This document shows, one piece after another, positions 890-58,337 of a stretch of DNA of 64,000 nt; position 1 is the stretch's first letter, and each line of letters opens with the position of its first letter. This DNA is from Escherichia phage 121Q: sequence record NC_025447.1; one strand, 5' to 3'. Both the position numbers and the translations under genes were made by a program. The notes below the pieces were generated by a model. That model had not been told where the DNA came from, did not search any database, and saw only the letters and a list, made by a program, of their open reading frames with translations.

Positions 890-2032
890 TTATTTCCACG
901 GTAGAAGGGAATCGGGGACTCTGGTTGGAACTCTCACGGCTGGAACATTTCCAAGTTCAGCCAAACCACTCATATACAAATTGTTATTTTCATCAATTAT
1001 CATTGAATAGAAATTATCAATTACGAAGCCTGAAATTCGTCTTCCTTCTAATGCATCAAGAACCATTTCGGTGAAAGTTAATATATTTTCGGATGTTTGA
1101 TTAACACCACATGCACCATAGGTATTTCGACCACAAGTATATAACTTATTATTATTTTTAACAACACATCCATTCCCTTCGTTGTTGGATAAACCACCCA
1201 CCAACTCTATTTCACCTTGGAATGATAAATTGGGAATTAATGTACTCATTGGTACTGCTGATACTCTACCTACACCAGCTTGACCATATGCATTTGGTGA
1301 AGCAACCTTCACTGAACCATCATTAAGAAATATATATGAAGTACGGTATGTATTTACAGCTTGTATAGCATTGGTGATCGTATTGTCTTTTGTAAAACTT
1401 AATATATTTGATGTTGTTGTACTACCAGGAGCAACAGTATTTCCTGCATACCAATAGGAACCATCATCAAGAACTAACCCAGTACTGAGCAAAGAACAGC
1501 CATAACTTTTAACATTTTCTATAGTGCTGTATCTGAACGATGTGACATTAGCTGTTGACGCGTTACCAAATACACCACCCTCGCCAGCACCACAGTAGAA
1601 CCATTTTCCATTTTTCAAAAATACACGCAAATTCTGTCCAACAGCAATACCATCAATATCATCAGCACTGACACCAAAATCAGTGAAGTACTGGGTTACA
1701 TCAATCCAAACCCCATTTGTATTTGTTCCGATTTGTGGCATTACTATACTAGCACCTGTGAACCAAATAGTTCCATCATTCTTAATGGCAATGGAACCAA
1801 GAACACCACCCCAGTAACGTTCAATATTATTATTCACACGGGTCCATACGGTGGATGATTGTAATGAACCATTACCACCTTGTCCAAATGAAGATGAACC
1901 ATACCAGTACAAGTCACCATTAACATGCAAATAAAAACGAGTATTATAATTTGCTTGTAATCTATTTTTAAATAGAGGTTTTGGTTCTGGTGCTTCATTT
2001 CCGTACTTAACCATTCTTGCAAAAGGTAACAT
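890..2032 (-). CDS. RCC1-like repeat (beta-propeller) protein, paralog B; possible virion fibre or host-interaction protein
   Basis: 380-aa ORF; N-terminus MLPFARMVKYGN; Gly/Asn/Ser/Thr-rich blades such as YxxGxNxxGQxG; SD upstream. Confidence 0.75.
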   Translation of the reverse strand: MLPFARMVKYGNEAPEPKPLFKNRLQANYNTRFYLHVNGDLYWYGSSSFGQGGNGSLQSSTVWTRVNNNIERYWGGVLGSIAIKNDGTIWFTGASIVMPQIGTNTNGVWIDVTQYFTDFGVSADDIDGIAVGQNLRVFLKNGKWFYCGAGEGGVFGNASTANVTSFRYSTIENVKSYGCSLLSTGLVLDDGSYWYAGNTVAPGSTTTSNILSFTKDNTITNAIQAVNTYRTSYIFLNDGSVKVASPNAYGQAGVGRVSAVPMSTLIPNLSFQGEIELVGGLSNNEGNGCVVKNNNKLYTCGRNTYGACGVNQTSENILTFTEMVLDALEGRRISGFVIDNFYSMIIDENNNLYMSGLAELGNVPAVRVPTRVPDSLLPWK

Positions 2033-2106
2033 AATTCCCTCCTTTATTCATTATACTATATTTAATACAAAAAAGAAAAGCCAGTATCAAGTACTGGCAT
2101 ATCAAA
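2033..2106. repeat. 74-bp intergenic repeat, copy 2
   Basis: Identical to 816-889. Confidence 0.85.
2064..2098 (-). terminator. Rho-independent terminator (minus strand) after gene 2107-3255
   Basis: Same hairpin plus U-run as 852-881. Confidence 0.6.
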
Positions 2107-3255
2107 TCACTGCAAAAATGACATATCGACTTCGGTATAATTAAGAACGTTCTGTCCAGCAATACCTCCCATTACTACAATTGAAGCCCCACAATAATAT
2201 AACTTCGAAGTGTCAGTAAGTATAAGTGAACCAGATGGGGTGCGTACCAAATTACACGAAGTATTAAACGAAGTATATGAAGGGGTATAAGAGTACTGAT
2301 TAATATTATTACCAACACCTAATTGACCAGACGAGTTGCTTCCAGATGCATAAAGTACTTCATCACCTTTAACTATATGTGACGCCATGTTACCAACACA
2401 AGTATATAAACTATAAACTCCTGAACTCAATAATGTTGGAGTTTTGTATTGTATATCTGTAGATGAAGAAGTACCACCTGTGCCAAATTCGTTCCCGTAT
2501 TGTGCACCGAACTGTTTACCACAAGCGTACAAATTATTATCCGATTTAATAAAAAATGTACTCTGATAACTGACATTACAATCTATAACATCCGAAGAAA
2601 TCATCGTCACCCCAGTAATAGAAGTTTGATTGCCTGTACCTAACTGATAGTAATAGTTAAAACCACAACCCCATAAAGTATTATCTTCTTTTAGGTATAT
2701 GTTACCAACTGCCTTTTTAACCGAAGTTATAGTATCTACCCTTTTGAATGTGTTAAAAGAATTAATGTTTGTACCATCACCAAATGATGATAGGTTAGAG
2801 TTATTGTTAGCTCCACAACAATACAATGTACCATCGTTTGTTATCAAATTTACCTTCATATCATTAAAACTACTCATGTATTTTATATCAGAAACATTAA
2901 TACCACCTGATGTTATCCATGTAGTACAGTCCGTCCACAAAGTTTTTCTATCAGTTACACCAGTGAATGCCTTCGTGTTGCCAGTGATAAAAACTTTTCC
3001 CGTACCTTTCTCTTCGTACAATTGACAATCACTACTGTTATCTTCCAATAGAACTCGTTTAACATTCTCCGCACAAAGAATAAATTTACTCGATGCTACA
3101 CCTGTTCCAGTACCCCAATTCGTCGCAGAAGATGCATACAACTTATCAGTATAAGTATCATGAAGATACATGGAATCACTGGAATATATTTTAAAACGTC
3201 CATCATCACCAGGGGCAATATTCCCGTACTTAACCATTCTTGCAAAAGGTAACAT
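2107..3255 (-). CDS. RCC1-like repeat (beta-propeller) protein, paralog C
   Basis: ORF track gives 2107-3291; start trimmed to the Met of MLPFARMVKYGN (rc ATG 3253-3255), which has the same SD context as the paralogs; blades such as YASGSNSSGQLGVGN and WGCGFNYYYQLGTGN. Confidence 0.7.
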   Translation of the reverse strand: MLPFARMVKYGNIAPGDDGRFKIYSSDSMYLHDTYTDKLYASSATNWGTGTGVASSKFILCAENVKRVLLEDNSSDCQLYEEKGTGKVFITGNTKAFTGVTDRKTLWTDCTTWITSGGINVSDIKYMSSFNDMKVNLITNDGTLYCCGANNNSNLSSFGDGTNINSFNTFKRVDTITSVKKAVGNIYLKEDNTLWGCGFNYYYQLGTGNQTSITGVTMISSDVIDCNVSYQSTFFIKSDNNLYACGKQFGAQYGNEFGTGGTSSSTDIQYKTPTLLSSGVYSLYTCVGNMASHIVKGDEVLYASGSNSSGQLGVGNNINQYSYTPSYTSFNTSCNLVRTPSGSLILTDTSKLYYCGASIVVMGGIAGQNVLNYTEVDMSFLQ

Positions 3256-3303
3256 AATTCCCTCCTTATTCATTATATCATATTTACCCAATAAAGAAAA
3301 CCC

Positions 3304-12537: not shown

Positions 12538-12759
12538 ATGGCTAATATCACTACTCTTTCCCAGCTTGAAGCACTGGTTAAATCTATGCGGGAACATGCC
12601 GACAATATCGGCGTAGAAGATCCGGCTGTATGTTTTTGCGACGAAATAAATGATGATACGCTCGTCATTGCAGAAGTACAAGACGTTTCTAACTATTCAT
12701 CGCGTTACACTGGCGGCGTAGCAAAGAAAGGTGATTTTTGTTTATATCTTACTAAGTAA
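12538..12759 (+). CDS. hypothetical protein (73 aa)
   Basis: SD TAAGGAG; MANITTL... Confidence 0.65.
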   Translation: MANITTLSQLEALVKSMREHADNIGVEDPAVCFCDEINDDTLVIAEVQDVSNYSSRYTGGVAKKGDFCLYLTK

Positions 12760-17804: not shown

Positions 17805-17833
17805 TTGACAACGTTTGATAGTACTGGCATAAT
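17805..17833 (+). promoter_or_regulatory. early-type promoter (variant 2)
   Basis: TTGACA, 17-nt spacer, CATAAT. Confidence 0.55.
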
Positions 17834-17876: not shown

Positions 17877-18056
17877 ATGGCTATTATCGCAAAAACTGAA
17901 ATCATCGGCCTGGATTCTATCATCATGACGTTTGAAGATCAAAAAGGGATGTATGTAGTTTCCTATGGTGATTATGTTCGGGAGTATGAAACAGTAGACG
18001 AAGCCTTTGAAAGTTACATTCGCCAGGTTAATAAAGCATACGACGATTACCGCTAA
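17877..18056 (+). CDS. hypothetical protein (59 aa)
   Basis: Start trimmed from 17805 (which lies in the promoter) to ATG 17877 after SD TAAGGAAT; MAIIAKTEII. Confidence 0.6.
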   Translation: MAIIAKTEIIGLDSIIMTFEDQKGMYVVSYGDYVREYETVDEAFESYIRQVNKAYDDYR

Positions 18057-18299: not shown

Positions 18300-18305
18300 G
18301 ATTAT

Positions 18306-18337
18306 AGCCCACTGGTTAACGCTGGTGGGCTTTAATC
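18306..18337 (+). terminator. terminator-like hairpin containing a Chi octamer
   Basis: AGCCCAC..GTGGGCT stem, then TTTAATC (weak U-tract). Confidence 0.45.
18321..18328 (+). other. Chi octamer GCTGGTGG
   Basis: Exact match inside hairpin loop/arm. Confidence 0.6.
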
Positions 18338-18404
18338 ATTTACCCTATACAATGCCAGTACTAAACCGTTTAACTCGTTAGAATGCGTTACAGGACGTTT
18401 AACA

Positions 18405-18602
18405 ATGATTAGCATGAAATCAGTACAAAAACAAATAGAAACATTATCAAAAATTAAACGTAAACAGTACTCATTAGAATATACAATCAATGGTAACTAT
18501 CATCTAATGAAAGAAAATAATTTTATAGTCATTGATGAATCATTGCAGATCATTAGTATAGTACTGAAAGCATTAATCAATGACAGAAAAAAGTTAAAAT
18601 AA
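18405..18602 (+). CDS. hypothetical protein (65 aa), uncertain
   Basis: ORF without convincing SD; preceded by repeated cgttagaatgcg element. Confidence 0.3.
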   Translation: MISMKSVQKQIETLSKIKRKQYSLEYTINGNYHLMKENNFIVIDESLQIISIVLKALINDRKKLK

Positions 18603-18606
18603 TCTA

Positions 18607-18635
18607 TTGACAATATTATCCAGTACTGGCATAAT
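18607..18635 (+). promoter_or_regulatory. early-type promoter (variant 2) in front of a ~290-nt leader
   Basis: TTGACA, 17-nt spacer, CATAAT; leader holds box element and GATC cluster. Confidence 0.5.
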
Positions 18636-18657
18636 ACTTACATCAAGACGAGAACGT

Positions 18658-18691
18658 CACTAACCCATAGGGTGCACAAATGTAACTATAT
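18658..18691 (+). repeat. 'CCCATAGGGTGCA' box element
   Basis: cactaacccatagggtgcacaaatgtaactatat. Confidence 0.5.
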
Positions 18692-18697
18692 AATATC

Positions 18698-18768
18698 GAT
18701 CAATAAATGATCAAAAAAGTACTGGATCAATTTAGCATAAGGCGTATAATTCTGATCAAATCTTGATC
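18698..18768. repeat. Cluster of five GATCAA repeats (Dam-type GATC sites)
   Basis: cgatcaat, tgatcaaa, ggatcaat, tgatcaaa, tgatcaaa within ~70 bp. Confidence 0.5.
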
Positions 18769-18931
18769 AAAGGCAATAAACGTAGTTGAAATTATATAGA
18801 AAGTACAAAGGCGTTACCATTCGTGGTAATGCTGGGGAATATGTAGTATCATACGGTTTGAATAAAATCAGTACTAGTAGTATTATTGTAGCATTACAGT
18901 ACTATAGTATTTTTATAATGAGGTTAAAATA

Positions 18932-19189
18932 ATGGCTGTTGGATTCGCGAAGGACGGGGCCGAGCAAGACGAGATTAACGCAGTGATTCAGGCCGCTGTA
19001 AACCACGCTAGAACGCAAATTAACGCACAAATAGAATCACTGATACATTGCCTCGACTGCGGCGATAAAATCCCTGAGAATCGCCGCCTGGCCGTTAAGG
19101 GGTGTAAGTACTGCATCACTTGCCAGGCTGATCATGATAGCATATTCAAACGCAATCCCCGTAATTGTTGGCATAGATCTATGAGATAA
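18932..19189 (+). CDS. TraR/DksA-family C4 zinc-finger protein (candidate RNA-polymerase-binding modulator)
   Basis: CLDCGDKIPENRRLAVKGCKYCITCQ matches the C-x2-C-x17-C-x2-C spacing and the CxxCGxxIPExRR...C..CQ pattern of TraR/DksA zinc fingers; SD TGAGGT. Confidence 0.55.
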   Translation: MAVGFAKDGAEQDEINAVIQAAVNHARTQINAQIESLIHCLDCGDKIPENRRLAVKGCKYCITCQADHDSIFKRNPRNCWHRSMR

Positions 19190-19195
19190 AAAGTA

Positions 19196-19223
19196 TTGAC
19201 AGTACTGTTAGTTAGTGTATAAT
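19196..19223 (+). promoter_or_regulatory. early-type promoter
   Basis: TTGACA, 16-nt spacer, TATAAT. Confidence 0.55.
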
Positions 19224-19252
19224 ATTTTATATCTTAACTGAGGATTGAAATC

Positions 19253-19609
19253 ATGGGTATACAACATATCACGCGTACTACAGACAATGGTGAGATCACT
19301 GGCTATCAAGTACAAGGCAAAGTAGCACAATTGCAGTACTGGTTTGTTAAACGTGGCATTGTTGCACCGGATCTTGATTATGATCGTGTAGCGTTTATTG
19401 ATTCTCTTTATGTTGATCCCGATAATCGCGGTAACGGTGAAGGTACTGAGTTAATGAATGCCTTTATTGATGCCGCCGATGATTCAGATTGTATCATCTT
19501 AGAATGCGATACTGGAGAAGATAACGAGTTTAATCTTAAAGAATGGTATGAAGGTTTTGGATTTGAAGTACTGATTAACTGCGAATATCCTATAATGATT
19601 TTATCCTAG
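19253..19609 (+). CDS. possible GNAT-family N-acetyltransferase (118 aa)
   Basis: LYVDPDNRGNGEGTELMNAF resembles GNAT motif A (R-G-x-G-x-G); SD CTGAGGAT. Confidence 0.4.
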   Translation: MGIQHITRTTDNGEITGYQVQGKVAQLQYWFVKRGIVAPDLDYDRVAFIDSLYVDPDNRGNGEGTELMNAFIDAADDSDCIILECDTGEDNEFNLKEWYEGFGFEVLINCEYPIMILS

Positions 19610-23039: not shown

Positions 23040-23282
23040 ATGATTACTTTAGAAAAACGTATCAAAGAGACTACAACGCTGGTGGAACTGTTAACCGTTC
23101 TTAAATGCCGGGTAACTCCATTCAGTACACCGGACTTTATCAACATGGTGGACGTTAACGGTCGCTATCGTATTGCGGTCGAACAAGGTACGGCAAAAGT
23201 ATTCAGTACTAAAAATACGCGTGAAGTATTCCACGCAGTTCAAGTAAAAAAAGTAGTTGCCATTGATAGTAAAGTACTGTAA
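23040..23282 (+). CDS. hypothetical protein (80 aa)
   Basis: Start trimmed to ATG 23040 after SD CGGGGAAAACAAA; shares promoter/leader but not protein sequence with 22764. Confidence 0.6.
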   Translation: MITLEKRIKETTTLVELLTVLKCRVTPFSTPDFINMVDVNGRYRIAVEQGTAKVFSTKNTREVFHAVQVKKVVAIDSKVL

Positions 23283-23313
23283 TATAGTTTCATTAACTCA
23301 AGGAGTCAACACA

Positions 23314-23898
23314 ATGCGTAACTATACTAAATTCATCCGTTCACTTCATGCAATGGAAACCAACAAAGAGATCCTTTCAGCTTGTCGGTTAGCTGGACTG
23401 GAGATCGTCGGTGCGGGTTCTTCCCGTATTGTATTCGCTTTAAATGATCGGTTAGTGATTAAGGTCGCGAATTGTGATGCGGGTGTAGAACAAAATGAAA
23501 CTGAATGTAAGGTATGGAATTTTTTAGATTATGACCGTCCGCACCTTAAACAGTTCTTTGCCAAGGTGCATATGCATTTATGCGATCCTGATAATCTGCT
23601 TATTGTTATGGATCGTTTGAGTACTGCAAGCAAAGGCAGTGTAAAGCACGTAACCGCATGTAATGAGTTAAAGTACAATATTAAACGTAACACTATTGAA
23701 CGCCATCACCATTTCGCTGATGCTCTCAATCACGTTGATGATACATTATCCACACTAACGATAAGAGATATCAGAAAACAGAATATCGGCCAGGATCGCA
23801 ACGGCTTGATTAAAGTACTTGATTACGGTTTAACCCGCAATATCTGGAATCAGTACTATAAAAAACGTGATGTTAACGCGATAACTATAACACGATAA
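23314..23898 (+). CDS. putative protein-kinase-like protein (194 aa)
   Basis: Motif order resembles a kinase core: Gly-rich loop GAGSSRIVF, lysine in LVIKVAN, catalytic-loop-like RDIRKQNIG, DFG-like DYG; start trimmed to ATG 23314 after SD CAAGGAGT. Confidence 0.4.
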   Translation: MRNYTKFIRSLHAMETNKEILSACRLAGLEIVGAGSSRIVFALNDRLVIKVANCDAGVEQNETECKVWNFLDYDRPHLKQFFAKVHMHLCDPDNLLIVMDRLSTASKGSVKHVTACNELKYNIKRNTIERHHHFADALNHVDDTLSTLTIRDIRKQNIGQDRNGLIKVLDYGLTRNIWNQYYKKRDVNAITITR

Positions 23899-47075: not shown

Positions 47076-47244
47076 TATTGCTAAACTATTCAATATATAT
47101 TCTACTAGAATGATGCAAACAGACTCATATAGTACTGAATTCAAAGAGTTGAAAGTACTGATGTACTTGGGAACCCAATATCAGGAACAAGTTATTTTGG
47201 AATATATTAATTCGTTGAAGAAGGATATCCGTTATGTACGATGA
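47053..47244 (+). CDS. family-2-like small protein
   Basis: Core YLGTQYQEQVI. Confidence 0.55.
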   Translation: MKIIDQDDIAKLFNIYSTRMMQTDSYSTEFKELKVLMYLGTQYQEQVILEYINSLKKDIRYVR

Positions 47245-47794
47245 TTTAGATCTTGCGTTTGAACGTATGGTAATTTTAATGCAATGTGCAGAAATGCATG
47301 AAACAATCCGTCGCACCAAAGGGATTGAATATACAAGTAAACTATTCTCATACGAAAGTCGTCGAGGGATGGATCATTTTTACTGCACTGATTGTTCAAA
47401 GTTTTCAGTACTGAAATATTATCATCCTACTGTTTCCAATAATAGTTTAATATCCACATATGACGGTGATCTGTTTAGTGTAATGTATGACACATTACAT
47501 CCATCAATTTCAATCTATAAAGATTGCGATAGTAGTTTATCGTATATAATTGAAGATTACTTATCTCCTAATACTGAAGAGAATATTTTTCAGAACAGTG
47601 TGTTGCATGATGAATTAAGTATAAAATGCATCTATATGTTCAATAAGTTAAAAGAGTACGCCGATAATAATTACTTCATTGATGATTTAGCGGTATTGTC
47701 TGTTTCCGTTTTTAATACAAATGATATTGATATGAAATACTATAATGAGATTTGTAAAGTACATCATATGTATAAGGAACTATTATGTCAATAA
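47234..47794 (+). CDS. family-3 protein
   Basis: Core TEENIFQNSVLHD. Confidence 0.6.
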   Translation: MYDDLDLAFERMVILMQCAEMHETIRRTKGIEYTSKLFSYESRRGMDHFYCTDCSKFSVLKYYHPTVSNNSLISTYDGDLFSVMYDTLHPSISIYKDCDSSLSYIIEDYLSPNTEENIFQNSVLHDELSIKCIYMFNKLKEYADNNYFIDDLAVLSVSVFNTNDIDMKYYNEICKVHHMYKELLCQ

Positions 47795-48387
47795 ATGCAA
47801 ATAAATGTTGTAGTGCAGATGTGCATTTGTTTTTTAAGAAATTAGCAAATGATATTATATATATGCAGGAAATGATTTATCACAAACGAGCGGATTTAGA
47901 AAAAGCATTAGTACAGTTCTCATTTATGCTTGATGGTGATATATTTCTAGAGAGTGATGCATTGCAAATAGTATTAGACAAAAATGCTAAAAGATTTTTA
48001 TTTCATATAGATAATAAATTATGTTCCTCCGTATGTCGTACTTTTTATAATCGTGATTCGGACTTATATCAATTCCTTTATTCTAAAGGTGCAGTAGAAG
48101 CATCATATGGTGATGGTTATGCCCTAGGAAAGAGTATTCCATTTATGAAATCATTTAAAATAGAACACATCAGTACTGATGAAGATGCAATGTTCACAAA
48201 TGATATAACTATGGGACGTGAAGATGCAATGCGATATATTACAAATTCTATGCATACATTCTTTCAACGAACAGAATTTGATAATGTATATATATCAAAT
48301 GTAAATATTTTCAATGACCTGTGTCAGTACTTGAGAAGTGTTTGTAATTTCGATGAAAGCTATTGTAAGCTATATACTGAGGTATAA
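47785..48387 (+). CDS. hypothetical protein (200 aa)
   Basis: Coupled ORF; core degenerate. Confidence 0.5.
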   Translation: MSINANKCCSADVHLFFKKLANDIIYMQEMIYHKRADLEKALVQFSFMLDGDIFLESDALQIVLDKNAKRFLFHIDNKLCSSVCRTFYNRDSDLYQFLYSKGAVEASYGDGYALGKSIPFMKSFKIEHISTDEDAMFTNDITMGREDAMRYITNSMHTFFQRTEFDNVYISNVNIFNDLCQYLRSVCNFDESYCKLYTEV

Positions 48388-48392
48388 AACAA

Positions 48393-48755
48393 ATGAACAC
48401 ATTAAGTATTACATACTATACAACTAAAAAATTAGTTACTTGTTTAATATCTTTGAAGACAAACCATGATGATATGTTTGATATGGCTGCATATGAATTA
48501 GAATTATCAGAAGATGGCTTCAAGAGCTATGAAGTATATAGCTATGTCCGTGAAGATGTAATTGACACTACACTAATGCAAGAGGATGAGTTATTCCAAG
48601 AAAGTTTAGTATGGGATAATAAGTACGATTGTAACTTTGATTTCTTATGTTTAATCCAGAAAGAAATGAAAAGAATCTTTGATAATTATCCAATCAAACG
48701 TTTCAGTACTGCACCTGAGCAATATAAAAGGATTATATTCACCTATGAAGATTGA
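48393..48755 (+). CDS. family-3 protein
   Basis: Core QEDELFQESLVWDNKYDC. Confidence 0.6.
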   Translation: MNTLSITYYTTKKLVTCLISLKTNHDDMFDMAAYELELSEDGFKSYEVYSYVREDVIDTTLMQEDELFQESLVWDNKYDCNFDFLCLIQKEMKRIFDNYPIKRFSTAPEQYKRIIFTYED

Positions 48756-49122
48756 ATTTGAAGTTATTACATATAGTATAGGTGATGGTATCCGTTGCTA
48801 TGTACAAGCAAGGCATATGGTTCCTGATGATAAACTGTCACCCAAAAGCTTCTGTATCACACAAGATCTCTTAGATATCAACGGAGAGTACAAGTACATA
48901 TATTATCTTACTAAGGGTTATTGTAGTACACGTGGTTTTAATATTGTAGCTGTTTCTAGAGATGAAATTGATGATTTAACTGAGTACGGGGAAGAAGAGA
49001 TGTTCCAGTACAGTACTGTTTTTAATGAACTGGATGTGTTTCTGTTACGAAAAATACAACACATTATGCAAGAATGTTTGCATCATAAGAGAGGTATGGT
49101 ATGCGACGTGAATCTGAATTAG
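48745..49122 (+). CDS. family-3 protein
   Basis: Start trimmed to ATG 48745; core GEEEMFQYSTVFN. Confidence 0.6.
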   Translation: MKIEFEVITYSIGDGIRCYVQARHMVPDDKLSPKSFCITQDLLDINGEYKYIYYLTKGYCSTRGFNIVAVSRDEIDDLTEYGEEEMFQYSTVFNELDVFLLRKIQHIMQECLHHKRGMVCDVNLN

Positions 49123-49442
49123 TTAAAGTAATGTACGCTACTCATATTAAACTACTACTTGTTAAATTTGATTATAATAAAAAACATAATGATTTCTATA
49201 CTTTAATTCGTGATGAAAATACATTCTCCTTGCGATGCAACAATATACCCTTGAAGATAAATGATTTTACTTCACTTGACGAGGGGGAATTATTTCAAGA
49301 ATCATTAGTTTTTAATAGTAATATAAAAATTGATATAGAAGTTATTAAAAAATACCAGATTCTATTGAACAAAATTATGAATTGTTATCCATGTGAAATA
49401 GGTGGTCATATGCAGTTCAAATCAAAAATGTATGAATTATGA
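49101..49442 (+). CDS. family-3 protein
   Basis: Core DEGELFQESLVFN. Confidence 0.6.
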   Translation: MRRESELVKVMYATHIKLLLVKFDYNKKHNDFYTLIRDENTFSLRCNNIPLKINDFTSLDEGELFQESLVFNSNIKIDIEVIKKYQILLNKIMNCYPCEIGGHMQFKSKMYEL

Positions 49443-49449
49443 GGTTTAT

Positions 49450-49986
49450 ATGTTAGATAAAAAAATGAACTCTGGAACCCAATATAATCATCTTAAGTTG
49501 GATACATTCGAATCAGCTATCAGTACAGCACAAGATATAATTGATATTATCAAGTTCATTAAAGAAGATAAGTTCAAATGTTTGAAAATACTAAATCGTT
49601 CAATGTACCGTGATAAAAATATTCATGTATCAGTACGTAGACCGAAAGATCAAGAAAGTGGGAGAGATTTCTATAACAACAGTGAGCAGTTCGAATGTGA
49701 ATATGATCCAGAATTTAGAGGTGGTTTCATGTGTTACTGTATGAAGGATACCTCACACATTGAGATACGTTCATCGAAAGGTGGCATACGTACATTAGAG
49801 TTTATTGATATAGTTTTAAATCAGGAATACTACTTTCAACTATCATTATTGTTTCCTGCATACGATTTAGGAGTTCTATTCATGTATAAGTACTTTCATG
49901 AGCACTGGAATGAAGACTTCTATCTGGACTTAGAAGATTACCAATTAGTTTGGAAAGAAATGGTAGAACTTCGCAACCCATCTTGA
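49450..49986 (+). CDS. family-3 protein
   Basis: Start trimmed to ATG 49450; core NQEYYFQLSLLF. Confidence 0.6.
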   Translation: MLDKKMNSGTQYNHLKLDTFESAISTAQDIIDIIKFIKEDKFKCLKILNRSMYRDKNIHVSVRRPKDQESGRDFYNNSEQFECEYDPEFRGGFMCYCMKDTSHIEIRSSKGGIRTLEFIDIVLNQEYYFQLSLLFPAYDLGVLFMYKYFHEHWNEDFYLDLEDYQLVWKEMVELRNPS

Positions 49987-50012
49987 CACCCTCCGATTCT
50001 TTGTGATATAAT
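49983..50012 (+). promoter_or_regulatory. internal promoter with extended -10
   Basis: TTGACA, 18-nt spacer, TGaTATAAT. Confidence 0.5.
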
Positions 50013-50045
50013 CTCTTTATATTAATTGTAAAGGGTTATATCACA

Positions 50046-50522
50046 ATGTCCAAAGACCTATCATTTAGCAATGCACAAAAAATAGCAAAAGACATTATCA
50101 GGGTTTATAAATTCCTTACAAATGTTACTGAAGATTTTTCCGTGGGCAAACATACAGTCAAAAAACGAAATGGATACCTTTCCTTTATGGATGGGTTACT
50201 CTATAGTTCAGATGAATCAACTTGTAGTATTAGAGTGCTTGATGAAGTACCAAGTGGTGATTTTATTTCATACCATTTCCCAAGTTCAGATAATTTCAAA
50301 TACTACAATCATCATCTTATAAATGAAGGATTTGATACGGCTGAAATTAACACTGAAGAAGAGTTCTTCCAGTACAGTACTGTGTATCCAGAGAGGATTG
50401 TTTTCAGTTCAGTGATTTACACTGCCCTTAAAAATGAACTAAATTCAGATAGTGATCATTTCTACTTGGACCTGAACAATCTCGATTGTATTATTGAGTA
50501 CCTGGAGAAAAATGGTTTATGA
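50046..50522 (+). CDS. family-3 protein
   Basis: Core TEEEFFQYSTVYP. Confidence 0.65.
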   Translation: MSKDLSFSNAQKIAKDIIRVYKFLTNVTEDFSVGKHTVKKRNGYLSFMDGLLYSSDESTCSIRVLDEVPSGDFISYHFPSSDNFKYYNHHLINEGFDTAEINTEEEFFQYSTVYPERIVFSSVIYTALKNELNSDSDHFYLDLNNLDCIIEYLEKNGL

Positions 50523-51013
50523 TTACTACAGAATATGATTACGATGGTGTTTTAGAATTTGCAGACAATATCTATCGCATTGCAAAGGAGTTCAGAAGTC
50601 CTGACCCATTTGGTGGTATGTTCGAATACGATGAGTTTAGTTCATCCAAAGGAAGACTTGCGTTTACTAATGAAAGAGGTAATCAAATCTATGCCGAGTA
50701 CTTTGATGACAATGACTTTCATTACAAAGCCGGATACATTTCATATTGCCCTGGGTCTGATTTGAAGATTAATATTGACAATTATAGAGAAGCAGTATTT
50801 GTTAAGTATGATGATTTAGTGTTCATGTCAGAGGAAATGTACTTTCAGGGTTCTTGTATTCATGATGTAAAAGTACTTAATGCTATGTTATTTTATGGTG
50901 CACTACTTCATCATTACAAATACAAACAACGATTCTTTTTAGATTTAGTAGTATACTATAAATGCGTGGATTATTTGAATGCAAAATACGACAACAATTC
51001 AGTACATGACTGA
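50519..51013 (+). CDS. family-3 protein
   Basis: Core SEEMYFQGSCIHD. Confidence 0.6.
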   Translation: MITTEYDYDGVLEFADNIYRIAKEFRSPDPFGGMFEYDEFSSSKGRLAFTNERGNQIYAEYFDDNDFHYKAGYISYCPGSDLKINIDNYREAVFVKYDDLVFMSEEMYFQGSCIHDVKVLNAMLFYGALLHHYKYKQRFFLDLVVYYKCVDYLNAKYDNNSVHD

Positions 51014-51341
51014 TGGTACTGAATACTTTGTTTCAAGATATGTAATCAGACACAATCATTATGTAACCTATATTCCAGAATACAATCAATTTTATATCCA
51101 GATTTATCAAGACAATGGAAAGATAAATGATATATATTCAGAAATAAAAATCCCTGATTATAGTACTTTATCAGAAGAGGAATTGTTTCAGCAGAGCACT
51201 ATCAGTACTGAAGATGTGTACAAAATAATGGAATACCAGAAGGTACTTAAATATTTTCATGAAGTACAGGATATACAAATAGATATTCTTACTGCGTGGA
51301 GTTATATCACACACGAGGTAAATTATGTTCGAAATGATTAA
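51006..51341 (+). CDS. family-3 protein
   Basis: Start trimmed from 50979; core SEEELFQQSTIS. Confidence 0.55.
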   Translation: MTDGTEYFVSRYVIRHNHYVTYIPEYNQFYIQIYQDNGKINDIYSEIKIPDYSTLSEEELFQQSTISTEDVYKIMEYQKVLKYFHEVQDIQIDILTAWSYITHEVNYVRND

Positions 51342-51738
51342 AATTATGCAACGATGTGTTGTTGACCAACACGGGATATATGGATATCGTTTAAGTGCTC
51401 CTATTGACAAAAATAAAACAACCTATGTAAGCTATAATGCTGTACAAGGATTTGATATATTCATTAGTACTAATTATCAAATCAATCAAGCTAAAGATGT
51501 GTCTATAATGACCCCTGATGAGTTATTTCAGTACAGCTTAGTCTTTCCTTCATGTATCGATTTACAACGTCTAGGAGCGATACAGAAGGTTTTACGCGAA
51601 CATAAAGTACAACCCAATAAAGTCACACACATTCCAGAAACAATCTTCAAAACCATAGAAGTAGAAACTCCTGATTATATGTTAAGTGATGATGAGTACT
51701 ACGAGAAACACTTCCCTGGTAAAGTTTGGAGAGATTGA
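51325..51738 (+). CDS. family-3 protein
   Basis: Core TPDELFQYSLVF. Confidence 0.6.
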   Translation: MFEMIKIMQRCVVDQHGIYGYRLSAPIDKNKTTYVSYNAVQGFDIFISTNYQINQAKDVSIMTPDELFQYSLVFPSCIDLQRLGAIQKVLREHKVQPNKVTHIPETIFKTIEVETPDYMLSDDEYYEKHFPGKVWRD

Positions 51739-52229
51739 TGAACCGAAAGTACAGAGAAACTATGAAGTTCGCTAGGGAGTGTTTAGAAGTGTTTGAGTTC
51801 ATCAATGCTCATAAAGATTTACTCCATAGATACATTGCAATCAGTGAGACAGATGACCATAGGTACATATGTTCTCGAATTCAAGATAAGATATATAAGA
51901 TTGTGTTCTCGGAAACATACACAGATACATCTAATTCACTATATGATTTTGCACGTACTGATTACGTTTCATACAAATCTTGGTCTGATAGTATTAAAAT
52001 TGTGCACAAGCAAAATACATTTTATTCTTTTCTTACGGACATTTCCGAAGAAAGTTACTTTCAAAACAGTTTAATTTATACAGAAAAAGAACTCAAAATG
52101 TTATATATTATGTCGTACTTTAAAAAGTACTGCAAATTTAATACATTATCTTTTGAGATTTCTGCAATGAAAGTATTCATTAAAAATGTAAAAGAACTAA
52201 AGAGGGCTTTTAATGTACATAGAAAATGA
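51726..52229 (+). CDS. family-3 protein
   Basis: Core SEESYFQNSLIY. Confidence 0.6.
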   Translation: MERLMNRKYRETMKFARECLEVFEFINAHKDLLHRYIAISETDDHRYICSRIQDKIYKIVFSETYTDTSNSLYDFARTDYVSYKSWSDSIKIVHKQNTFYSFLTDISEESYFQNSLIYTEKELKMLYIMSYFKKYCKFNTLSFEISAMKVFIKNVKELKRAFNVHRK

Positions 52230-52755
52230 GAATGTAAAATGCATTACTGAAATTTGTATAAAATTAATGAAAATTTTCATTAACCCAAAATACAAAAAAC
52301 GTTCATTACATCATAATATTGATGAGCATTGTACCATTAATATACTAGGTAGTATTCTTGATGTAAAATATGATGGTAGAATGTTATTTGGCATAAGAGA
52401 AGAGAAAATAGATGATGCATTCTTTTCCTGTAAAGATAAATTTGAACCTTCTGATTATAAAGTAATTATTCGTGATGATAGCATCTACATTAGTAGTGAT
52501 TATTCAAATTACTTCGATAAAATATACAATGAAAACGTTGACTACCATTATGAAATGATAGATTTACCAGTAACAGACATTGATATGGAGAGAATCAAAT
52601 TTTCATTATCAGATAATGAGTACTTAGGTATACAAACATATTATTCACTACAAGGAAAGATTCCACCTGCTATGTATATAAGGATTGAGATTGGTAATGT
52701 ATTCAATGATAAGGTTATATCTATTGCTGATAAAATATTGAGGGTTGAATTATGA
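52213..52755 (+). CDS. hypothetical protein (180 aa)
   Basis: Coupled ORF; core degenerate. Confidence 0.5.
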   Translation: MYIENENVKCITEICIKLMKIFINPKYKKRSLHHNIDEHCTINILGSILDVKYDGRMLFGIREEKIDDAFFSCKDKFEPSDYKVIIRDDSIYISSDYSNYFDKIYNENVDYHYEMIDLPVTDIDMERIKFSLSDNEYLGIQTYYSLQGKIPPAMYIRIEIGNVFNDKVISIADKILRVEL

Positions 52756-53315
52756 ATATCAATGATTACCAATTTCATAGGCTTGAATTTCGTCATTGTG
52801 TTGCATTTGCAAAAACATTGATGTGCATCATTGACACTCTTTCATCCAAACAATTTCGTAAGGATAATGATTTATTTCTGAAAAAAGGTCGTGTAACATC
52901 AACCGATATCGGTATTGAACTATTTGTTGATATCAGTGTTGATACCGGAGACAGTACAAGGGTTGGTTGTATAGGTCATATTGGTACACATTGCTTCACA
53001 TGGAATCCAAATACAAGTCAAGTACGAGTTGATTATAGAAATTCACGTTGGGTTGATCTTAGTACTGAATCAGATTTAGAATCAGCTATGTTCCAGCTAA
53101 GTTTAATTCACAATCCTAATGAACTTCTTTACATTATTACTTTCAGTTATCTGTTACAAAACTACGATAATCCATCAGGATTTTTCATAGAATCAGATAT
53201 AGATGAAATTATGGAAGAGATTCCCAGTTTAAAGAATATTCTCGAAGAAAAAGATTTCTATGAAGACTTCAGAGATTTATACGACATGCACTTGGAGTTA
53301 TTTAAGAATGGATAA
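52752..53315 (+). CDS. family-3 protein
   Basis: Core LESAMFQLSLIHN. Confidence 0.6.
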   Translation: MNINDYQFHRLEFRHCVAFAKTLMCIIDTLSSKQFRKDNDLFLKKGRVTSTDIGIELFVDISVDTGDSTRVGCIGHIGTHCFTWNPNTSQVRVDYRNSRWVDLSTESDLESAMFQLSLIHNPNELLYIITFSYLLQNYDNPSGFFIESDIDEIMEEIPSLKNILEEKDFYEDFRDLYDMHLELFKNG

Positions 53316-53826
53316 AGATGATATTCTAATTAGACTAATTAATAGTTTAATAAAGTTCTCAAATAATGATGTCGATACATACAAAGTGGGGGATATTGAA
53401 TTTAAATCATTTGGTATGTACGGTGAGGATAAAACATATTATGCGTCAATGAAATTTCAAGATTTTCACGAGATGTTAATATCGTTATCATATGAAGATG
53501 TTGATCCAAGATGGAGTTCCAGTATTTCACTATCGAGAATGGTAATTCGTAGTAAGCATCGTTATATTTCGTCAAAGAATACTCCTAACTTGATTAATAT
53601 TGTGTTGAATGAAAATACAAATCCCCTATCTAAACATGATATCGTACCGTTAACCGATGAAGTTCTTTTTCAATTGAGTACCATTTGTGATGAAGATGTG
53701 ATATCATGTATGAAAATTTATGAGAAGGTTGGGAGTGATATTCCCATGAACTATTACCTAACTATAGATGGAACGTACCTTCGAGATGAGGTTCTAGCGT
53801 ACATTGACAGTGTTTTACCAAAATAA
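53308..53826 (+). CDS. family-3 protein
   Basis: Start trimmed to ATG 53308; core TDEVLFQLSTICD. Confidence 0.55.
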   Translation: MDKDDILIRLINSLIKFSNNDVDTYKVGDIEFKSFGMYGEDKTYYASMKFQDFHEMLISLSYEDVDPRWSSSISLSRMVIRSKHRYISSKNTPNLINIVLNENTNPLSKHDIVPLTDEVLFQLSTICDEDVISCMKIYEKVGSDIPMNYYLTIDGTYLRDEVLAYIDSVLPK

Positions 53827-53847
53827 AGACCCGTATGGGTCTTTTTG
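53827..53847 (+). terminator. Rho-independent terminator
   Basis: AGACCC-GTAT-GGGTCT followed by TTTTTG. Confidence 0.65.
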
Positions 53848-53858
53848 TGTTTATGGCT

Positions 53859-53886
53859 TTACAAGAGCATTCAGGTGTGTTATACT
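53859..53886 (+). promoter_or_regulatory. promoter-like element
   Basis: TTACAA, 16-nt spacer, TATACT. Confidence 0.4.
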
Positions 53887-53913
53887 TGATTTTAACTAGA
53901 GTTGGAGGAATCT

Positions 53914-54480
53914 ATGAGTACTGAATTAATTAAAGAAGTCACATTACTTCTGAAGCATTGTTTTAAGTTCATTCCTGATACTGGCTCACGCCAGTACATT
54001 AAAGTTAATGAGAAATATAACATCAATATCCTTGTATCTGAAACTGCGAGCAGTTATGCTAACATTGAGTTGGATTCTGAAGAAAAATATACAGTATTAC
54101 AAATCATAGCAGATGTACAACGTAAACAAGATTATCGTTCTTCATTTTACAACGATTATCTGTGCGTTTGCTCAAACTTCAGTGAGAATAAAATTGTGTA
54201 TAAGAATTTATACACACATGAAGTGATTGATACATATAATTATAAAATTTCATCTGATGAATACAATGTTCTAATGTTCAACGCAAACCTTTTGTATGAT
54301 GCCAGTACTGTACGCTGTTTAGAGTTAGCATATAAAATTCCAAAGATCATGGAAAGAAAAGATTTGATTCACTTTAAAACAATTTTAAAATACAGTACAA
54401 AAGAATTAGAGGATTTAGTACAGGCTCTTAAGAATTTCATTAATGAACATGTACCTGTTAAATTCGAGGATGCACAATGA
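53914..54480 (+). CDS. hypothetical protein (188 aa), family-3-like
   Basis: Start trimmed to ATG 53914 after SD GGAGGAAT. Confidence 0.55.
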   Translation: MSTELIKEVTLLLKHCFKFIPDTGSRQYIKVNEKYNINILVSETASSYANIELDSEEKYTVLQIIADVQRKQDYRSSFYNDYLCVCSNFSENKIVYKNLYTHEVIDTYNYKISSDEYNVLMFNANLLYDASTVRCLELAYKIPKIMERKDLIHFKTILKYSTKELEDLVQALKNFINEHVPVKFEDAQ

Positions 54481-55061
54481 ACCATATCAGAACTAAAATT
54501 TTGAGACTCATGCATGACATTGCAGAACTTTCAGAGATTCATGACATTACGGAAATTGTTGAATTTGATAATTATCGACTGAAAATTGAAAACAAATCCA
54601 AACATCGTTTTGGTTCAGTTCAGTTGGATGTATATAAAACTTATGAATTTTCTAAAAAAATTAAAAGTTCATGGGATACGATTACTATGTACATTCGCAC
54701 ATCCAGAAATCGTGAACGTATTGGTTCTATTTCTTCTAATATGGTATTTGCGAATGCATTACATGAAAAAATGAATAAAATTGTAGAATCTGATTTCAGT
54801 GAAGATGATGGTTTTATTGGGTTGGATGTTCCACCAGAATTAGACCAAAGTGAAGATATTCGAGATGCATTCATTTTCCAGAAATCATTGTTGGACAATT
54901 ACAAAGAATTCGAGTACTTAATGCTTTGTTACGATACTGCAAAAATTCTTGATTGTGGTGAACTAGTTATGTACAATGATTTTATCAATTGCAAGACTGA
55001 TGTTCTGAATACACTACTTCAAAATATAGAATCTGTTAAGGAAAAATATGAACGCTTATAG
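54477..55061 (+). CDS. family-3 protein
   Basis: Core RDAFIFQKSLLDN. Confidence 0.6.
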   Translation: MNHIRTKILRLMHDIAELSEIHDITEIVEFDNYRLKIENKSKHRFGSVQLDVYKTYEFSKKIKSSWDTITMYIRTSRNRERIGSISSNMVFANALHEKMNKIVESDFSEDDGFIGLDVPPELDQSEDIRDAFIFQKSLLDNYKEFEYLMLCYDTAKILDCGELVMYNDFINCKTDVLNTLLQNIESVKEKYERL

Positions 55062-55629
55062 TTATATGACAGAACGCCATCAGTTATTATATGATATCAG
55101 TAAAAAAATGCTATCAATTGTTGGTAGTGCGAAAGAAATTGAAAAACAATATCTCATCCGTGATGTAGCAATTTCATCTAAATGTTGGTCAAATGAATAT
55201 TACGACCACGGTATTCTTACTATTTCTGGGGCTAGAAATATTTGTATTGTAAAAAATAAAAGTAAAAGTAATGAAGAGTGTGAGATTAGAACCGATATAC
55301 AAATTAAGGATGATGGAAGTTTTTCACACCACCCATTCCATATTAGTACTATTGGTGTTTTATATAATATTAAAGTACTATTCGGTGATGAAGAGTATGT
55401 GTTAAAAGCTATCAATCCAGATTCAAGTACAGTTGAAGAAGAACTGTTCCAGATGAGCACTGTTATACCTGAAGAGGTTCTTAGTACTGTTGTTTTTTGT
55501 AGTTTAATTTATCATACATACAAAAAGAACCAATTCGATTTCCACATTTTAGGAACGTACATCTTCAATACTTTGAATGTTGATCGTTTAAAAGCATTAA
55601 ATGCAGCAATGGATAAGGTGCTACAATGA
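55048..55629 (+). CDS. family-3 protein
   Basis: Core VEEELFQMSTVIP. Confidence 0.6.
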   Translation: MNAYSYMTERHQLLYDISKKMLSIVGSAKEIEKQYLIRDVAISSKCWSNEYYDHGILTISGARNICIVKNKSKSNEECEIRTDIQIKDDGSFSHHPFHISTIGVLYNIKVLFGDEEYVLKAINPDSSTVEEELFQMSTVIPEEVLSTVVFCSLIYHTYKKNQFDFHILGTYIFNTLNVDRLKALNAAMDKVLQ

Positions 55630-56054
55630 CAAGAGATGATTGTTTGTACATATGGGATATAATTGAAACTACACTTTCAAATCCAGAAAATTATAAAACA
55701 AAAAAAAGACAACGACACAAAATATGGATAGATTTGTTCGTTGAGGGCATACACGCAGTGACTATTTGGGATTCACCGAGGGCATCAGCATCTACTCTAT
55801 TGGACAATGAATGCATTGATTGCATTAATTCCACTTTTCATCTCTACGGTACTACATTTTTCGGTACATTTCTGGATATTGAAAGTAAAGATGATATTGA
55901 TTCACTTGCGTTACAATACCAAGTACTGTATAATACTAAATTAATTTACGATTTAGTACTAGCTTCTTATGTGTATAAATTAATGATGAAATATAATCAT
56001 ATTTCTGTTTCAGTTTATACTAAGGATATTCTTTCATTAAGAGACAAAACATGA
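55626..56054 (+). CDS. hypothetical protein (142 aa)
   Basis: Coupled ORF; core degenerate. Confidence 0.5.
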   Translation: MTRDDCLYIWDIIETTLSNPENYKTKKRQRHKIWIDLFVEGIHAVTIWDSPRASASTLLDNECIDCINSTFHLYGTTFFGTFLDIESKDDIDSLALQYQVLYNTKLIYDLVLASYVYKLMMKYNHISVSVYTKDILSLRDKT

Positions 56055-56560
56055 GTTTATTAAATGCACGCGAATTAGTTGAGATGTATGAGATTTTGTC
56101 TTCATATAAAAATTCTCATGGAGATGTGATTCTCGACAAAAAGTTCCATGTCAGTGTTGAACATATATCAAATATAGATATGATTTCTTTGGTGGAAAGT
56201 AATAAGTCAGGTCTTGAACGCGATATCATGCGTTTGATTTATATTCCCAAACCATCATATACTAATGATAGTTCAATTAGTAATGAGACATTCATGTATA
56301 GTCCTGGTACGGATTCTACTATAGTATCGCTGTCCAATAAATCAATGGGTACTTTCCAATTCATCTATACCAGTACTGATAACATTGAAGAAATTGAATT
56401 TCAAAACAATACATTAAGTCCATGTAGTAGTGTTATAACCTTTATGTCATATCTATGGTCAACTAAAACAAGTGCTGTTGTATATAGTTCAAATTATACA
56501 CAAGATAGTATTGTTGAATCATATAAAGTTCTAAAGGAATACTATGAAAATAACAAATGA
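56051..56560 (+). CDS. family-3 protein
   Basis: Core IEEIEFQNNTLS. Confidence 0.55.
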   Translation: MSLLNARELVEMYEILSSYKNSHGDVILDKKFHVSVEHISNIDMISLVESNKSGLERDIMRLIYIPKPSYTNDSSISNETFMYSPGTDSTIVSLSNKSMGTFQFIYTSTDNIEEIEFQNNTLSPCSSVITFMSYLWSTKTSAVVYSSNYTQDSIVESYKVLKEYYENNK

Positions 56561-57125
56561 TTTTATTAAAAGTGTAGTACACCCTATGCTTAGTATTATG
56601 AAAAAAATACAGAATCTACCGGAAGATAACGATTACAAGTTTAATCGTTTTGATTCAGATGTGTTTTGTATTGAAATTGAAATTAATAACAATCGCAATT
56701 TACATTTAAAATTCAAAGAATCGTCAAGTCCGTACTACAACTTTGATATGAATTTTAAAATAGATACTGACATTGAAGAAAACGTAATATCAAATCATAC
56801 TAGCAAAAATGGTTTTATGCATAGAACTACTATGTACAATAATAAAAATAGTATTATATCTAAATGGAATCATCAATTCACTAAAATTTGTGAAATTGAA
56901 TATAGTGATTTTGGTGAAGAGAATTACTTTCAGTTAAGTACAATTCATGAACTTCCACCGTATGATTATGTTAAAACATGGTTTGATATTCATAATATAA
57001 TTGATGATGCAATCAAACTTCCTTTTGGTGTGTCAATATCATATACTGCTCCTAAAACATTTGTTTTTACTGAAGATATGATTATGAAAAAGATATGGGC
57101 AATTATCCCACTTATGATGGATTAA
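56544..57125 (+). CDS. family-3 protein
   Basis: Core GEENYFQLSTIHE. Confidence 0.6.
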   Translation: MKITNDFIKSVVHPMLSIMKKIQNLPEDNDYKFNRFDSDVFCIEIEINNNRNLHLKFKESSSPYYNFDMNFKIDTDIEENVISNHTSKNGFMHRTTMYNNKNSIISKWNHQFTKICEIEYSDFGEENYFQLSTIHELPPYDYVKTWFDIHNIIDDAIKLPFGVSISYTAPKTFVFTEDMIMKKIWAIIPLMMD

Positions 57126-57130
57126 ATTCG

Positions 57131-57157
57131 TACCAGGGGTTGACTCTGGTATTTTTG
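57131..57157 (+). terminator. terminator-like hairpin
   Basis: TACCAG..CTGGTA followed by TTTTTG. Confidence 0.45.
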
Positions 57158-57186
57158 TATGATACATTGTCCTAAAGGAGAATTTT

Positions 57187-57738
57187 ATGAACTACAATCA
57201 TGATCTTTTTACATTATGTGCATCCAAATGTGTTGATGGATGGACAGATAAAATCAATACCATAATTCATCGATATCTGGTCTTTAGTTCTCGTGCACGA
57301 AGTGAGGGGGCTATGGATTTCAAATATACACTATCTATTGATGGTGTAACTATCCATGCAGACGAAGAACGTCTGAGCATTAATTTGTATGATTCATGTG
57401 TATTTGCTATTCACCAAAAGATGGGGAAAGGATGGGGTTGTAATAACATTAACTCAAAAGCTATCTTTTGGGTTGGTCACCACCAGACAGTACTTGATCC
57501 TTCAATCAAATCTAATCTTTTATCCGATAATATGGTTTATGATTTATTGTACTCCGAAGAACAACATTTTCAGTTAAGTACATTACATGATCTGGCACAG
57601 TACGAGGATTGTTACAAAACATTAGAACTATGCCATTCCCTTGAACTTAAAGATAAATTGATACAAGTTTACCCTTCATTCTTTCATGAAGAAGTACAAA
57701 GTACACTAGATCATATTTTATATGGATACGATAAATGA
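57187..57738 (+). CDS. family-3 protein
   Basis: SD AAAGGAGAAT; core SEEQHFQLSTLHD. Confidence 0.65.
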   Translation: MNYNHDLFTLCASKCVDGWTDKINTIIHRYLVFSSRARSEGAMDFKYTLSIDGVTIHADEERLSINLYDSCVFAIHQKMGKGWGCNNINSKAIFWVGHHQTVLDPSIKSNLLSDNMVYDLLYSEEQHFQLSTLHDLAQYEDCYKTLELCHSLELKDKLIQVYPSFFHEEVQSTLDHILYGYDK

Positions 57739-58337
57739 GAAAAAGTTATCAAGAAGCTATTGACTTAATTCGTGAAGTTATCAAGGTGGCTCCTGCTGCT
57801 ATTGAGTTCAAGAAGTCCATATACAAGAAGTATGGTTCAATGTCGAGTATGTGCTTTCAAAAGAAACGTAGAGCATTCACTACCCAGTACTGGAATGATT
57901 CTATCATCCTGAGCAATGAGACTCAGCGTATTTTAACACTAGAATCTGAACCTAATGAGTACGGGGAAGGGAACATTTGTGTACCTGATTATGATGAAAT
58001 TAACTTCAACTGCGGTGATTTTGAAACAACATTATTACTTCATGAGGGTTATCCAGAAGGTGATGTATTAGCTGAGTACAATCCAAAAACTAAAATTCTC
58101 AAAAGAGGAATCCAGTTCACTATTAATAACAAAGATGATGTTCAAGCAGCACTGATGCAACTGAGTACAAGTGAACCTATCACTATTAGTGTAGAAGAGT
58201 TATGGGGAATTATTTCAGTACTCAATGAGTGCTACAAAGTAAAATCATTGCGTAAACACAGCATTATATTACATACCAATATGGCAAATATAAAATGTAA
58301 GCACATTCAAGAAATGGTGGTTCCAGATGGACTTTAA
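57735..58337 (+). CDS. family-3 protein
   Basis: Core QAALMQLSTSEP. Confidence 0.55.
   Translation: MRKSYQEAIDLIREVIKVAPAAIEFKKSIYKKYGSMSSMCFQKKRRAFTTQYWNDSIILSNETQRILTLESEPNEYGEGNICVPDYDEINFNCGDFETTLLLHEGYPEGDVLAEYNPKTKILKRGIQFTINNKDDVQAALMQLSTSEPITISVEELWGIISVLNECYKVKSLRKHSIILHTNMANIKCKHIQEMVVPDGL

Follow-up and report, generated by a model that had tools for sequence, protein, structure and literature searches.

The locus and its genes

The window, the whole 64,000-nt stretch analysed here, belongs to an Asteriusvirus-type jumbo coliphage of the PBECO4/121Q/G17 group, and its best match is phage Turkey3 (96% identity). Around the five GATC sites under study, very small early genes follow one another, and a near-consensus sigma-70 promoter precedes each of them. 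The homologous region of phage vB_Ec-M-J is found approximately 12 kb inside the annotated 21.5-kb direct terminal repeat. The initial annotation had placed the sites in a leader of ~290 nt in front of a TraR-like gene. This description could not be upheld, since the stretch holds a real gene of 48 amino acids (18786–18932, here called orfX) and an internal promoter. The supposed leader is a cassette of 330 bp between an upstream gene of 65 amino acids and the TraR-like gene, and it is present in the window and in 24 other records. All features of the cassette described below are located on the plus strand.

Both ends of the cassette are formed by an 11-nt direct repeat, GTTAAAATAAT. The left copy (18593–18603) is the end of the upstream 65-amino-acid gene, and the right copy (18923–18933) comprises the end of orfX and the start of the TraR-like gene; the repeat consists of the ends of two genes whose stop and start codons overlap (GTTAAAATAATG). 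Phages phAPEC6 and G17 lack the cassette and contain a single copy of GTTAAAATAAT, and in these phages the 65-amino-acid gene abuts the TraR-like gene with a stop/start overlap (TAATG). The empty sites occur on two distinct flank backgrounds, that of phAPEC6 and that of G17. This pattern suggests recurrent deletion between the 11-nt repeats, or that small early genes are shuffled at junctions of this kind. The promoter-early stem-loop (PeSL) cassettes of T4-type phages, reportedly described by Arbiol et al. in 2010, likewise combine small early genes with their own promoter and a conserved leader and are shuffled at short repeats among close relatives, whereas the junction found here is an 11-nt repeat in which two gene ends meet with a stop/start overlap. 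Phage Sharanji, which is viable and carries a terminal repeat of 20.7 kb (PMC11895373), has nothing that matches positions 89–329 of the cassette. The cassette is dispensable and the function of the array is local. In Hallingskeid, and only there, the insertion of a gene for a free-standing HNH endonuclease closely precedes the cassette (214–642 of that locus), and in metagenomic relatives the kinase-like gene is situated directly upstream of it.

Transcription into the cassette is predicted to start from promoter P1 (18607–18635), a TTGACA-17-CATAAT sequence with a TG element and 11 of 12 matches, whose predicted start is at ~18642. It is followed by a small hairpin, GACGAGAACGTC (18647–18658), and by a multi-copy box, CACTAACCCATAGGGTGCAC (18658–18677), an ACCC-N3-GGGT hairpin or palindrome that is conserved across phage groups (Asteriusvirus, Alcyoneusvirus, Mimasvirus and the Erwinia-phage loci) and is found also without the GATC array. 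Copies of P1 plus box (CTAACCCAYNGGGTGCAC) exist elsewhere in the window at 12893 (minus strand), from 10733 (minus strand) to 10600 and from 23917 (plus strand) to 24000, as well as in RaK2, Muenster, GAP32 and Hallingskeid. The array is absent from the further copies of the module in the window and in Klebsiella, Cronobacter and Erwinia jumbo phages. We therefore rejected the idea that it is tied to the generic P1-box module.

The array itself begins directly behind the box. Unit I, GATCAAtaaatGATCAA (18698–18714), contains GATC sites 1 and 2 as GATCAA-N5-GATCAA and is centred at approximately −52 from the start of a predicted second promoter, P2. The −35 element of P2, TGGATC (18723–18728; TTGATC in the PBECO4 type), includes GATC site 3 and is followed after a 16-nt spacer by the −10 element TATAAT (18745–18750). 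The predicted start at ~18757 lies 29 nt before the start codon of orfX. Unit II, GATCAAatcttGATCAA (18754–18770), holds sites 4 and 5 and is centred at approximately +4 of P2. The five GATCAA are, as read from the sequence, two paired units and one predicted promoter hexamer. Within the core of P2, GATC occurs in the −35 element (18725–18728), at approximately −3 and at approximately +8; in the Erwinia type the GATCs flank the −10 element. The promoter scanner made no P2 call in the window, where the −35 element is weak (3/6). The equivalent promoter was called in PBECO4 (10/12), in Hallingskeid (10/12) and in a further homologous locus, L018 (11/12).

The gene orfX extends from a TTG start codon to a TAA stop codon that overlaps the ATG of the TraR-like gene. 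Its 48-amino-acid product has a pI of 10.1 and matches phrog_38664 (E = 9e-34). It is annotated in PBECO4 (AGC34933), Turkey3 and JNE01 and was omitted by other depositors; the annotation of the several deposited genomes from which it is missing is hereby corrected. Among E. coli and Salmonella phages the orfX region exists as two alleles, with 96–98% identity in the flanks but only 62–67% over the array plus the 5′ two-thirds of the ORF. Despite this divergence at the DNA level the orfX peptide stays similar between the two alleles. The dN/dS values for orfX ranged from 0.13 to 0.29 in every comparison, and the other two frames showed the opposite pattern. A homolog of 60 amino acids (36% identity, E = 1e-9, pI 9.8) is encoded by Erwinia phage Hallingskeid, and six more homologs with 31–38% identity were obtained from metagenomes; a profile search of viral contigs with the 48-amino-acid protein gave no match. 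Judged by these dN/dS values and distant homologs, orfX is a real gene. Its translation signals are weak in E. coli phages, with a TTG or GTG start and a distant AAGG. The UUCG hairpin ttaccattcgtggtaa, which had been put forward as an element of the leader (TTACCATTCGTGGTAA, 18814–18829), consists of orfX codons (VTIRGN) and is absent from the PBECO4-type allele, and was therefore dismissed as a regulatory element. A minus-strand ORF annotated in SHEFM2K and SD-1_S14 is not open in the window.

Downstream of orfX, and predicted to be translationally coupled to it, lies an 85-amino-acid TraR/DksA-type C4 zinc-finger gene (18932–19189; PF01258, E = 2.2e-11; phrog_54).

The confident AlphaFold model of the orfX product (pLDDT 90.8) consists of four strands and a C-terminal helix, with the antiparallel beta-sheet packed against the helix as in AP2/arm-type domains. 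A Foldseek search of the PDB yielded nothing significant, and the sequence profiles of Pfam, NCBIfam and PDB gave no family, including the AP2 and arm-DNA-binding families. Matches in BFVD were restricted to uncharacterised small phage proteins, among them a RaK2 protein of 59 amino acids with the same fold. Matches to the beta-meander-plus-helix fold also include PH-like domains and others that do not bind DNA. A neighbouring gene of 59 amino acids (17877–18056; phrog_9374) might encode a distant paralog of orfX (hhalign probability 65%, shared ...YVVSYG... motif), a hint that the terminal repeat could harbour a family of mini-proteins with the beta-meander-plus-helix fold. No comparable repeats were found at the promoter of this gene.

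Clustering and conservation of the GATCAA sites

Our recount confirmed five clustered GATCAA sites, all on the plus strand and starting at 18698, 18709, 18725, 18754 and 18765, in an otherwise GATC-poor window. Over the whole window GATC is depleted, with 141 sites observed compared with 201 ± 12 expected from dinucleotide shuffles (100 of 100 shuffles held more). The densest GATC cluster of the 64 kb is 18698–18770. If the 141 sites were placed uniformly, five or more within 71 bp would occur with a probability of 0.002. Comparison of the GATC density in the cluster with that of the rest, named beforehand as the refuting test, revealed a difference, since every other 71-bp stretch contains at most three sites. 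In the related Erwinia-type loci 4.5–9.7 GATC per kb were counted, compared with the under-representation across positions 1–64000 of the window.

Spacing is also non-random. Sites 1 and 2 and sites 4 and 5 are each 11 bp apart, and 11-bp pairs occur in every lineage. The corresponding pattern GATC-N7-GATC was observed three times in the window compared with 0.49 expected, a number that none of 100 shuffles reached, and two of the three occurrences fall inside the cluster at 18698–18770. The third, at 61214, overlaps a ribosome-binding site and an ATG and was regarded as chance. Among the 74 strong sigma-70-like promoters of the window, 69 have no or one GATC between −70 and +130. Only the promoter at 18607 has five in this interval; the remaining 73 have at most three.

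For an evolutionary comparison, the DNA upstream of every orfX homolog was examined, covering the window type, the PBECO4-type allele and nine loci of the Erwinia-phage type, in which orfX shares just 31–38% identity. The order P1, box, unit I, P2, unit II, ribosome-binding site and small gene is common to all of them. Unit I always follows immediately 3′ of the box, with its centre at −52 ± 2 relative to the start of P2 in each lineage, and its sequence variation is confined to the central 4 nt, at the same position in all three lineages. The centre of unit II changes from +4 (window type) to −36 (PBECO4 type) and −9 (Erwinia type), and is always within the footprint of the polymerase. The hexamers of P2 are conserved, while its spacers and flanks have diverged: in the E. 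coli phages P2 reads T(G/T)GATC, 16 nt, TATAAT, and in the Erwinia type TTGACW, 17 nt, AATAAT. In an alternative alignment, the second units and P2 are non-orthologous between the E. coli- and Erwinia-phage groups, which leaves the architecture unchanged.

Conservation extends beyond the GATC tetranucleotide. Across the three lineages, 11 of 13 sites are followed by AA (P = 6e-8, given the local composition) and 11 of 13 are preceded by T. AA also follows four of the six second half-sites that lie outside any 15-mer (P = 0.006). In one relative (loci L024/L025) the second GATC is changed to AATC, so that the unit is kept and one Dam site is lost. The conserved motif TGATCAA is longer than GATC and its repeats are one helical turn apart, which favours a sequence-specific reader.

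The array was found only together with orfX, and phages without orfX also lack the array. Assignment of the sites to the TraR-like gene, as initially proposed, does not hold, because the array precedes orfX and the gene that follows orfX in the Erwinia type has no zf-dskA_traR match. From these comparisons the array appears to travel with P2 and the small gene only. A 19-amino-acid ORF (MIKKVLDQ...) that starts at 18707 and runs over sites 2–5 was rejected as a coding sequence. Its frame is broken in CMSTMSU and reads MI* in the PBECO4 type, and the array itself is therefore considered non-coding.

Proposed operators for P2 and their possible readers

Since the cluster is both non-random and evolutionarily conserved, a regulatory role is well supported. 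This part of the earlier proposal of a Dam/SeqA-type regulation stands, while its leader framing and its gene assignment do not. In our opinion the array is probably a cis-regulatory, protein-binding element that controls the predicted promoter P2 and orfX. The five sites would represent the half-sites of two 17-bp operator-like units and the −35 element of P2, and P2 would drive orfX, with which the TraR-like gene would be co-translated. A sequence-specific protein would recognize the TGATCAA repeats one helical turn apart; once bound, it would occlude the RNA polymerase at P2 and may also block read-through from P1. Sequence-specific operators are favoured because the conserved motif exceeds GATC.

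The most likely binder would be the basic product of the cassette itself, with its AP2- or integrase-arm-like fold, in which case the cassette would be negatively autoregulated. Its predicted fold, its basic pI and the adjacent repeats are the grounds for proposing sequence-specific DNA binding by the orfX product. Autoregulation by this AP2-like protein is a possibility that we put forward tentatively, with less confidence than the operator function as such. The region in which the two alleles diverge takes in the array as well as the beta-sheet portion of orfX, a linkage of cis-element and controlled gene that is expected whichever protein binds. A classic arrangement is that of the small repressor whose tandem operators overlie its own promoter. 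As in Arc/Mnt of P22, CopG and omega, a gene of ~50 codons directly follows a promoter flanked or overlapped by short repeats one turn apart, encodes a basic protein and forms a self-contained, dispensable module. Those repressors are ribbon-helix-helix proteins, whereas the orfX product, a candidate DNA binder, is predicted to form a four-strand meander plus helix; furthermore, the module described here also receives transcription from the strong promoter P1 upstream. In contrast to the three-stranded AP2/integrase-arm domains (plant and apicomplexan AP2, HNH-AP2 endonucleases and the N-terminal domains of lambda, Tn916 and HPI Int), the orfX model has four strands, and the protein is free-standing with 48 amino acids and falls outside their sequence profiles.

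GATC is part of every half-site, so that binding would be expected to compete or interact with Dam methylation. Such a competition between Dam and a protein bound to a GATC-containing site is seen at E. coli Fis sites (PMC10653831). In a still more speculative form, which we regard as improbable, the AP2-like mini-protein would autoregulate the cassette via TGATCAA operators with embedded Dam sites and thereby couple its expression to the methylation or replication state of the terminal repeat. A co-translated TraR/DksA-like polymerase-binding factor would then be under the control of a phage-borne epigenetic timer with a minimal DNA-binding domain.

The orfX product, Fis and Dam/SeqA are not mutually exclusive, and the latter two might be rivals of, or layers added to, binding by orfX. 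The units could be sites for the host protein Fis at −52 and over the core promoter, with P2 tuned to growth phase and Dam methylation modulating or competing with binding, an explanation that we consider rather unlikely. The published core of Fis sites, GNTYAAAWTTTRANC (PMC6907758, Table 2), agrees with unit I, GATCAATAAATGATC, at G1, T3, Y4, A5, A6, T11, R12, A13 and C15, and the centre of unit I is all A/T; the Erwinia-type unit II, GATCAATAATTGATC, fits still better; the unit II of E. coli phages agrees at the outer positions, but its central C disfavours Fis. Unit I is the sole match in the 64 kb to the relaxed pattern GNTYAWWWWWTRANC, although one match corresponds to chance level (0.61 expected). 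The AATC change in the relative mentioned above keeps R12 of the Fis core and destroys the Dam site. Fis is conserved across the enterobacterial hosts concerned, and GATCs in Fis sites of E. coli are hypomethylated (PMC10653831). The 15-bp G...C core, the AT-rich centre and the embedded GATCs are shared with Fis promoters (rrnB P1 and fis) and with the IS50 inside end, and the core also resembles Fis-regulated promoters in its location, over a sigma-70 promoter as well as upstream of it. Weinreich and Reznikoff reportedly observed in 1992 that Dam methylation blocks the binding of Fis to this inside end. Fis does not explain the invariant N positions (A2 and T14), the AA after the second half-sites or the singleton and overlapping sites; in these candidate sites, unlike in Fis sites, positions that Fis does not read are conserved.

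Alternatively, the methylation state itself could act, either by SeqA binding to hemimethylated 11-bp pairs or by an effect of methylation on the polymerase at P2, which would make expression differ between incoming and replicated phage DNA. We assign to this possibility the same low likelihood as to Fis. SeqA prefers same-face pairs approximately one turn apart (PMC2691817), and here the pairs are spaced by 11 bp. GATC is depleted elsewhere and retained here in all lineages; it is part of the −35 element of P2 in the window type and the PBECO4 type, and it flanks the −10 element in the Erwinia type. The position of the second pair varies while the density of the cluster is kept, which would suit a density-based reader. 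Moreover, with host Dam taken as present during infection, the phage group encodes a Dam-family methyltransferase of its own (PF05869): gp542 of the Asteriusvirus Sharanji, whose gene is outside the window, matches PF05869 with E = 7e-32 and TIGR01712 below the cut-off. IS10 pIN, pap, agn43, oriC and lambda pR likewise have GATC within promoter elements and same-face GATC pairs. Against a role of Dam or SeqA as the reader, conservation reaches TGATCAA, and neither protein reads beyond GATC. One GATC is lost in the AATC relative, which keeps the unit, and the Erwinia-type loci are not GATC-poor. The array differs from these known targets by its longer motif and its specificity for a single dispensable cassette.

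The remaining explanations fit the data less well. All five sites read in the same direction along the transcribed strand and follow the strong P1, which might mean that GAUCAA in the P1 transcript is bound by an RNA-binding protein or forms a regulatory structure. This is very unlikely, since the sites are largely palindromic (TGATCA) and coincide with promoter elements, both of which are features at the DNA level. In addition, the fold of the leader is only marginally more stable than that of shuffled sequences (z = −1.9), with helices made up of the GATC palindromes only, and no credible Rfam hit was obtained for 18300–19300 at E ≤ 10; a long structured leader or riboswitch-like RNA was rejected on these grounds. 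A packaging site like P1 pac, where 161 bp contain seven Dam hexamers of the form TGATCA/G (PMC10028697), or a replication origin would be in accordance with the location in the terminal repeat and with clustered Dam sites, three of five of which are TGATCA. The array is not an essential packaging site or origin, because phAPEC6 and G17 cleanly lack the cassette and positions 89–329 are unmatched in viable Sharanji. P1 pac differs further, in that the array is outside the terminase gene and the genome end, at ~12 kb inside a fixed terminal repeat of 21.5 kb, and no DnaA box (TTWTNCACA) is present in 18600–18930. A pac or oriC-like role was accordingly rejected as scarcely conceivable. Finally, the array could be a chance or historical by-product without function, for instance of degenerate −35-like TTGATC hexamers, which resemble TTGACA, or of a small duplication; the two units have the look of duplicated copies, and the region is AT-rich. 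This is quite improbable, if somewhat less so than a role of the RNA, in view of the clustering, the excess of GATC-N7-GATC and the AA extension documented above, and because the array has been retained with unit I at a fixed position although the surrounding non-coding sequence has diverged beyond recognition.

Control of P2 by operators would most likely represent ordinary promoter-operator biology in a group of phages that has been little studied. In Rak2-like jumbo phages the early regions contain hundreds of tiny genes of unknown function, and almost no regulation has been described for them. The locus provides a testable module with two promoters, two operator-like units, a 48-amino-acid candidate regulator and a TraR/DksA-like effector, for which the cassette-free phages are natural knock-outs and the three lineages natural operator rearrangements. 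If the orfX product binds TGATCAA, it would be among the smallest AP2-like DNA binders and would give a handle on the expression timing of a modulator of the host polymerase. If Fis or SeqA/Dam reads the sites, an early promoter of a jumbo phage would be wired to host physiology or to replication state.

Further observations on the P1-box modules and the window

At some of the other module copies, namely at 10733 (minus strand), in EJP2 and in GAP32, the box is followed ~45 nt later by an inverted copy, GCACCCCGTGGG (loci L013–L016 are among the carriers of this module). The two copies suggest a long hairpin or paired binding sites. The copy at 12893 (minus strand) might give rise to a small RNA of ~100 nt (12893–12757) with a TTGACA-17-CATAAT promoter, the box hairpin and a terminator, GGGGATCgtttGATCCCC, with a U-rich tail. 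This candidate is convergent with the plus-strand gene 12538–12759 and conserved in the Klebsiella phages RaK2 and Muenster. RNAalifold predicted 21 pairs from three sequences, three of them with compensatory changes, and no Rfam family was found for it.

A kinase-like small protein with weak Pkinase hits (window 23257–23898; 718–1308 in the Erwinia-type locus L017) shows 39% identity between the coliphage and the Erwinia type, and its gene is followed by P1 plus box in both groups. Nearly all early promoters carry the hexamer AGTACT in their spacer (TTGACA..cAGTACTg..TATAAT), and further copies stand between genes; examples are at 18622–18627, 19202–19207 and 17820–17825. The hexamer occurs also at related loci of Klebsiella and Erwinia phages. 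Elsewhere in the window, two adjacent RCC1-repeat-like proteins are encoded at 890–3291 (minus strand), and 47234–58911 (plus strand) is occupied by a long run of ORFs of ~180–200 amino acids, an apparently paralogous array whose scanned members had no Pfam match.
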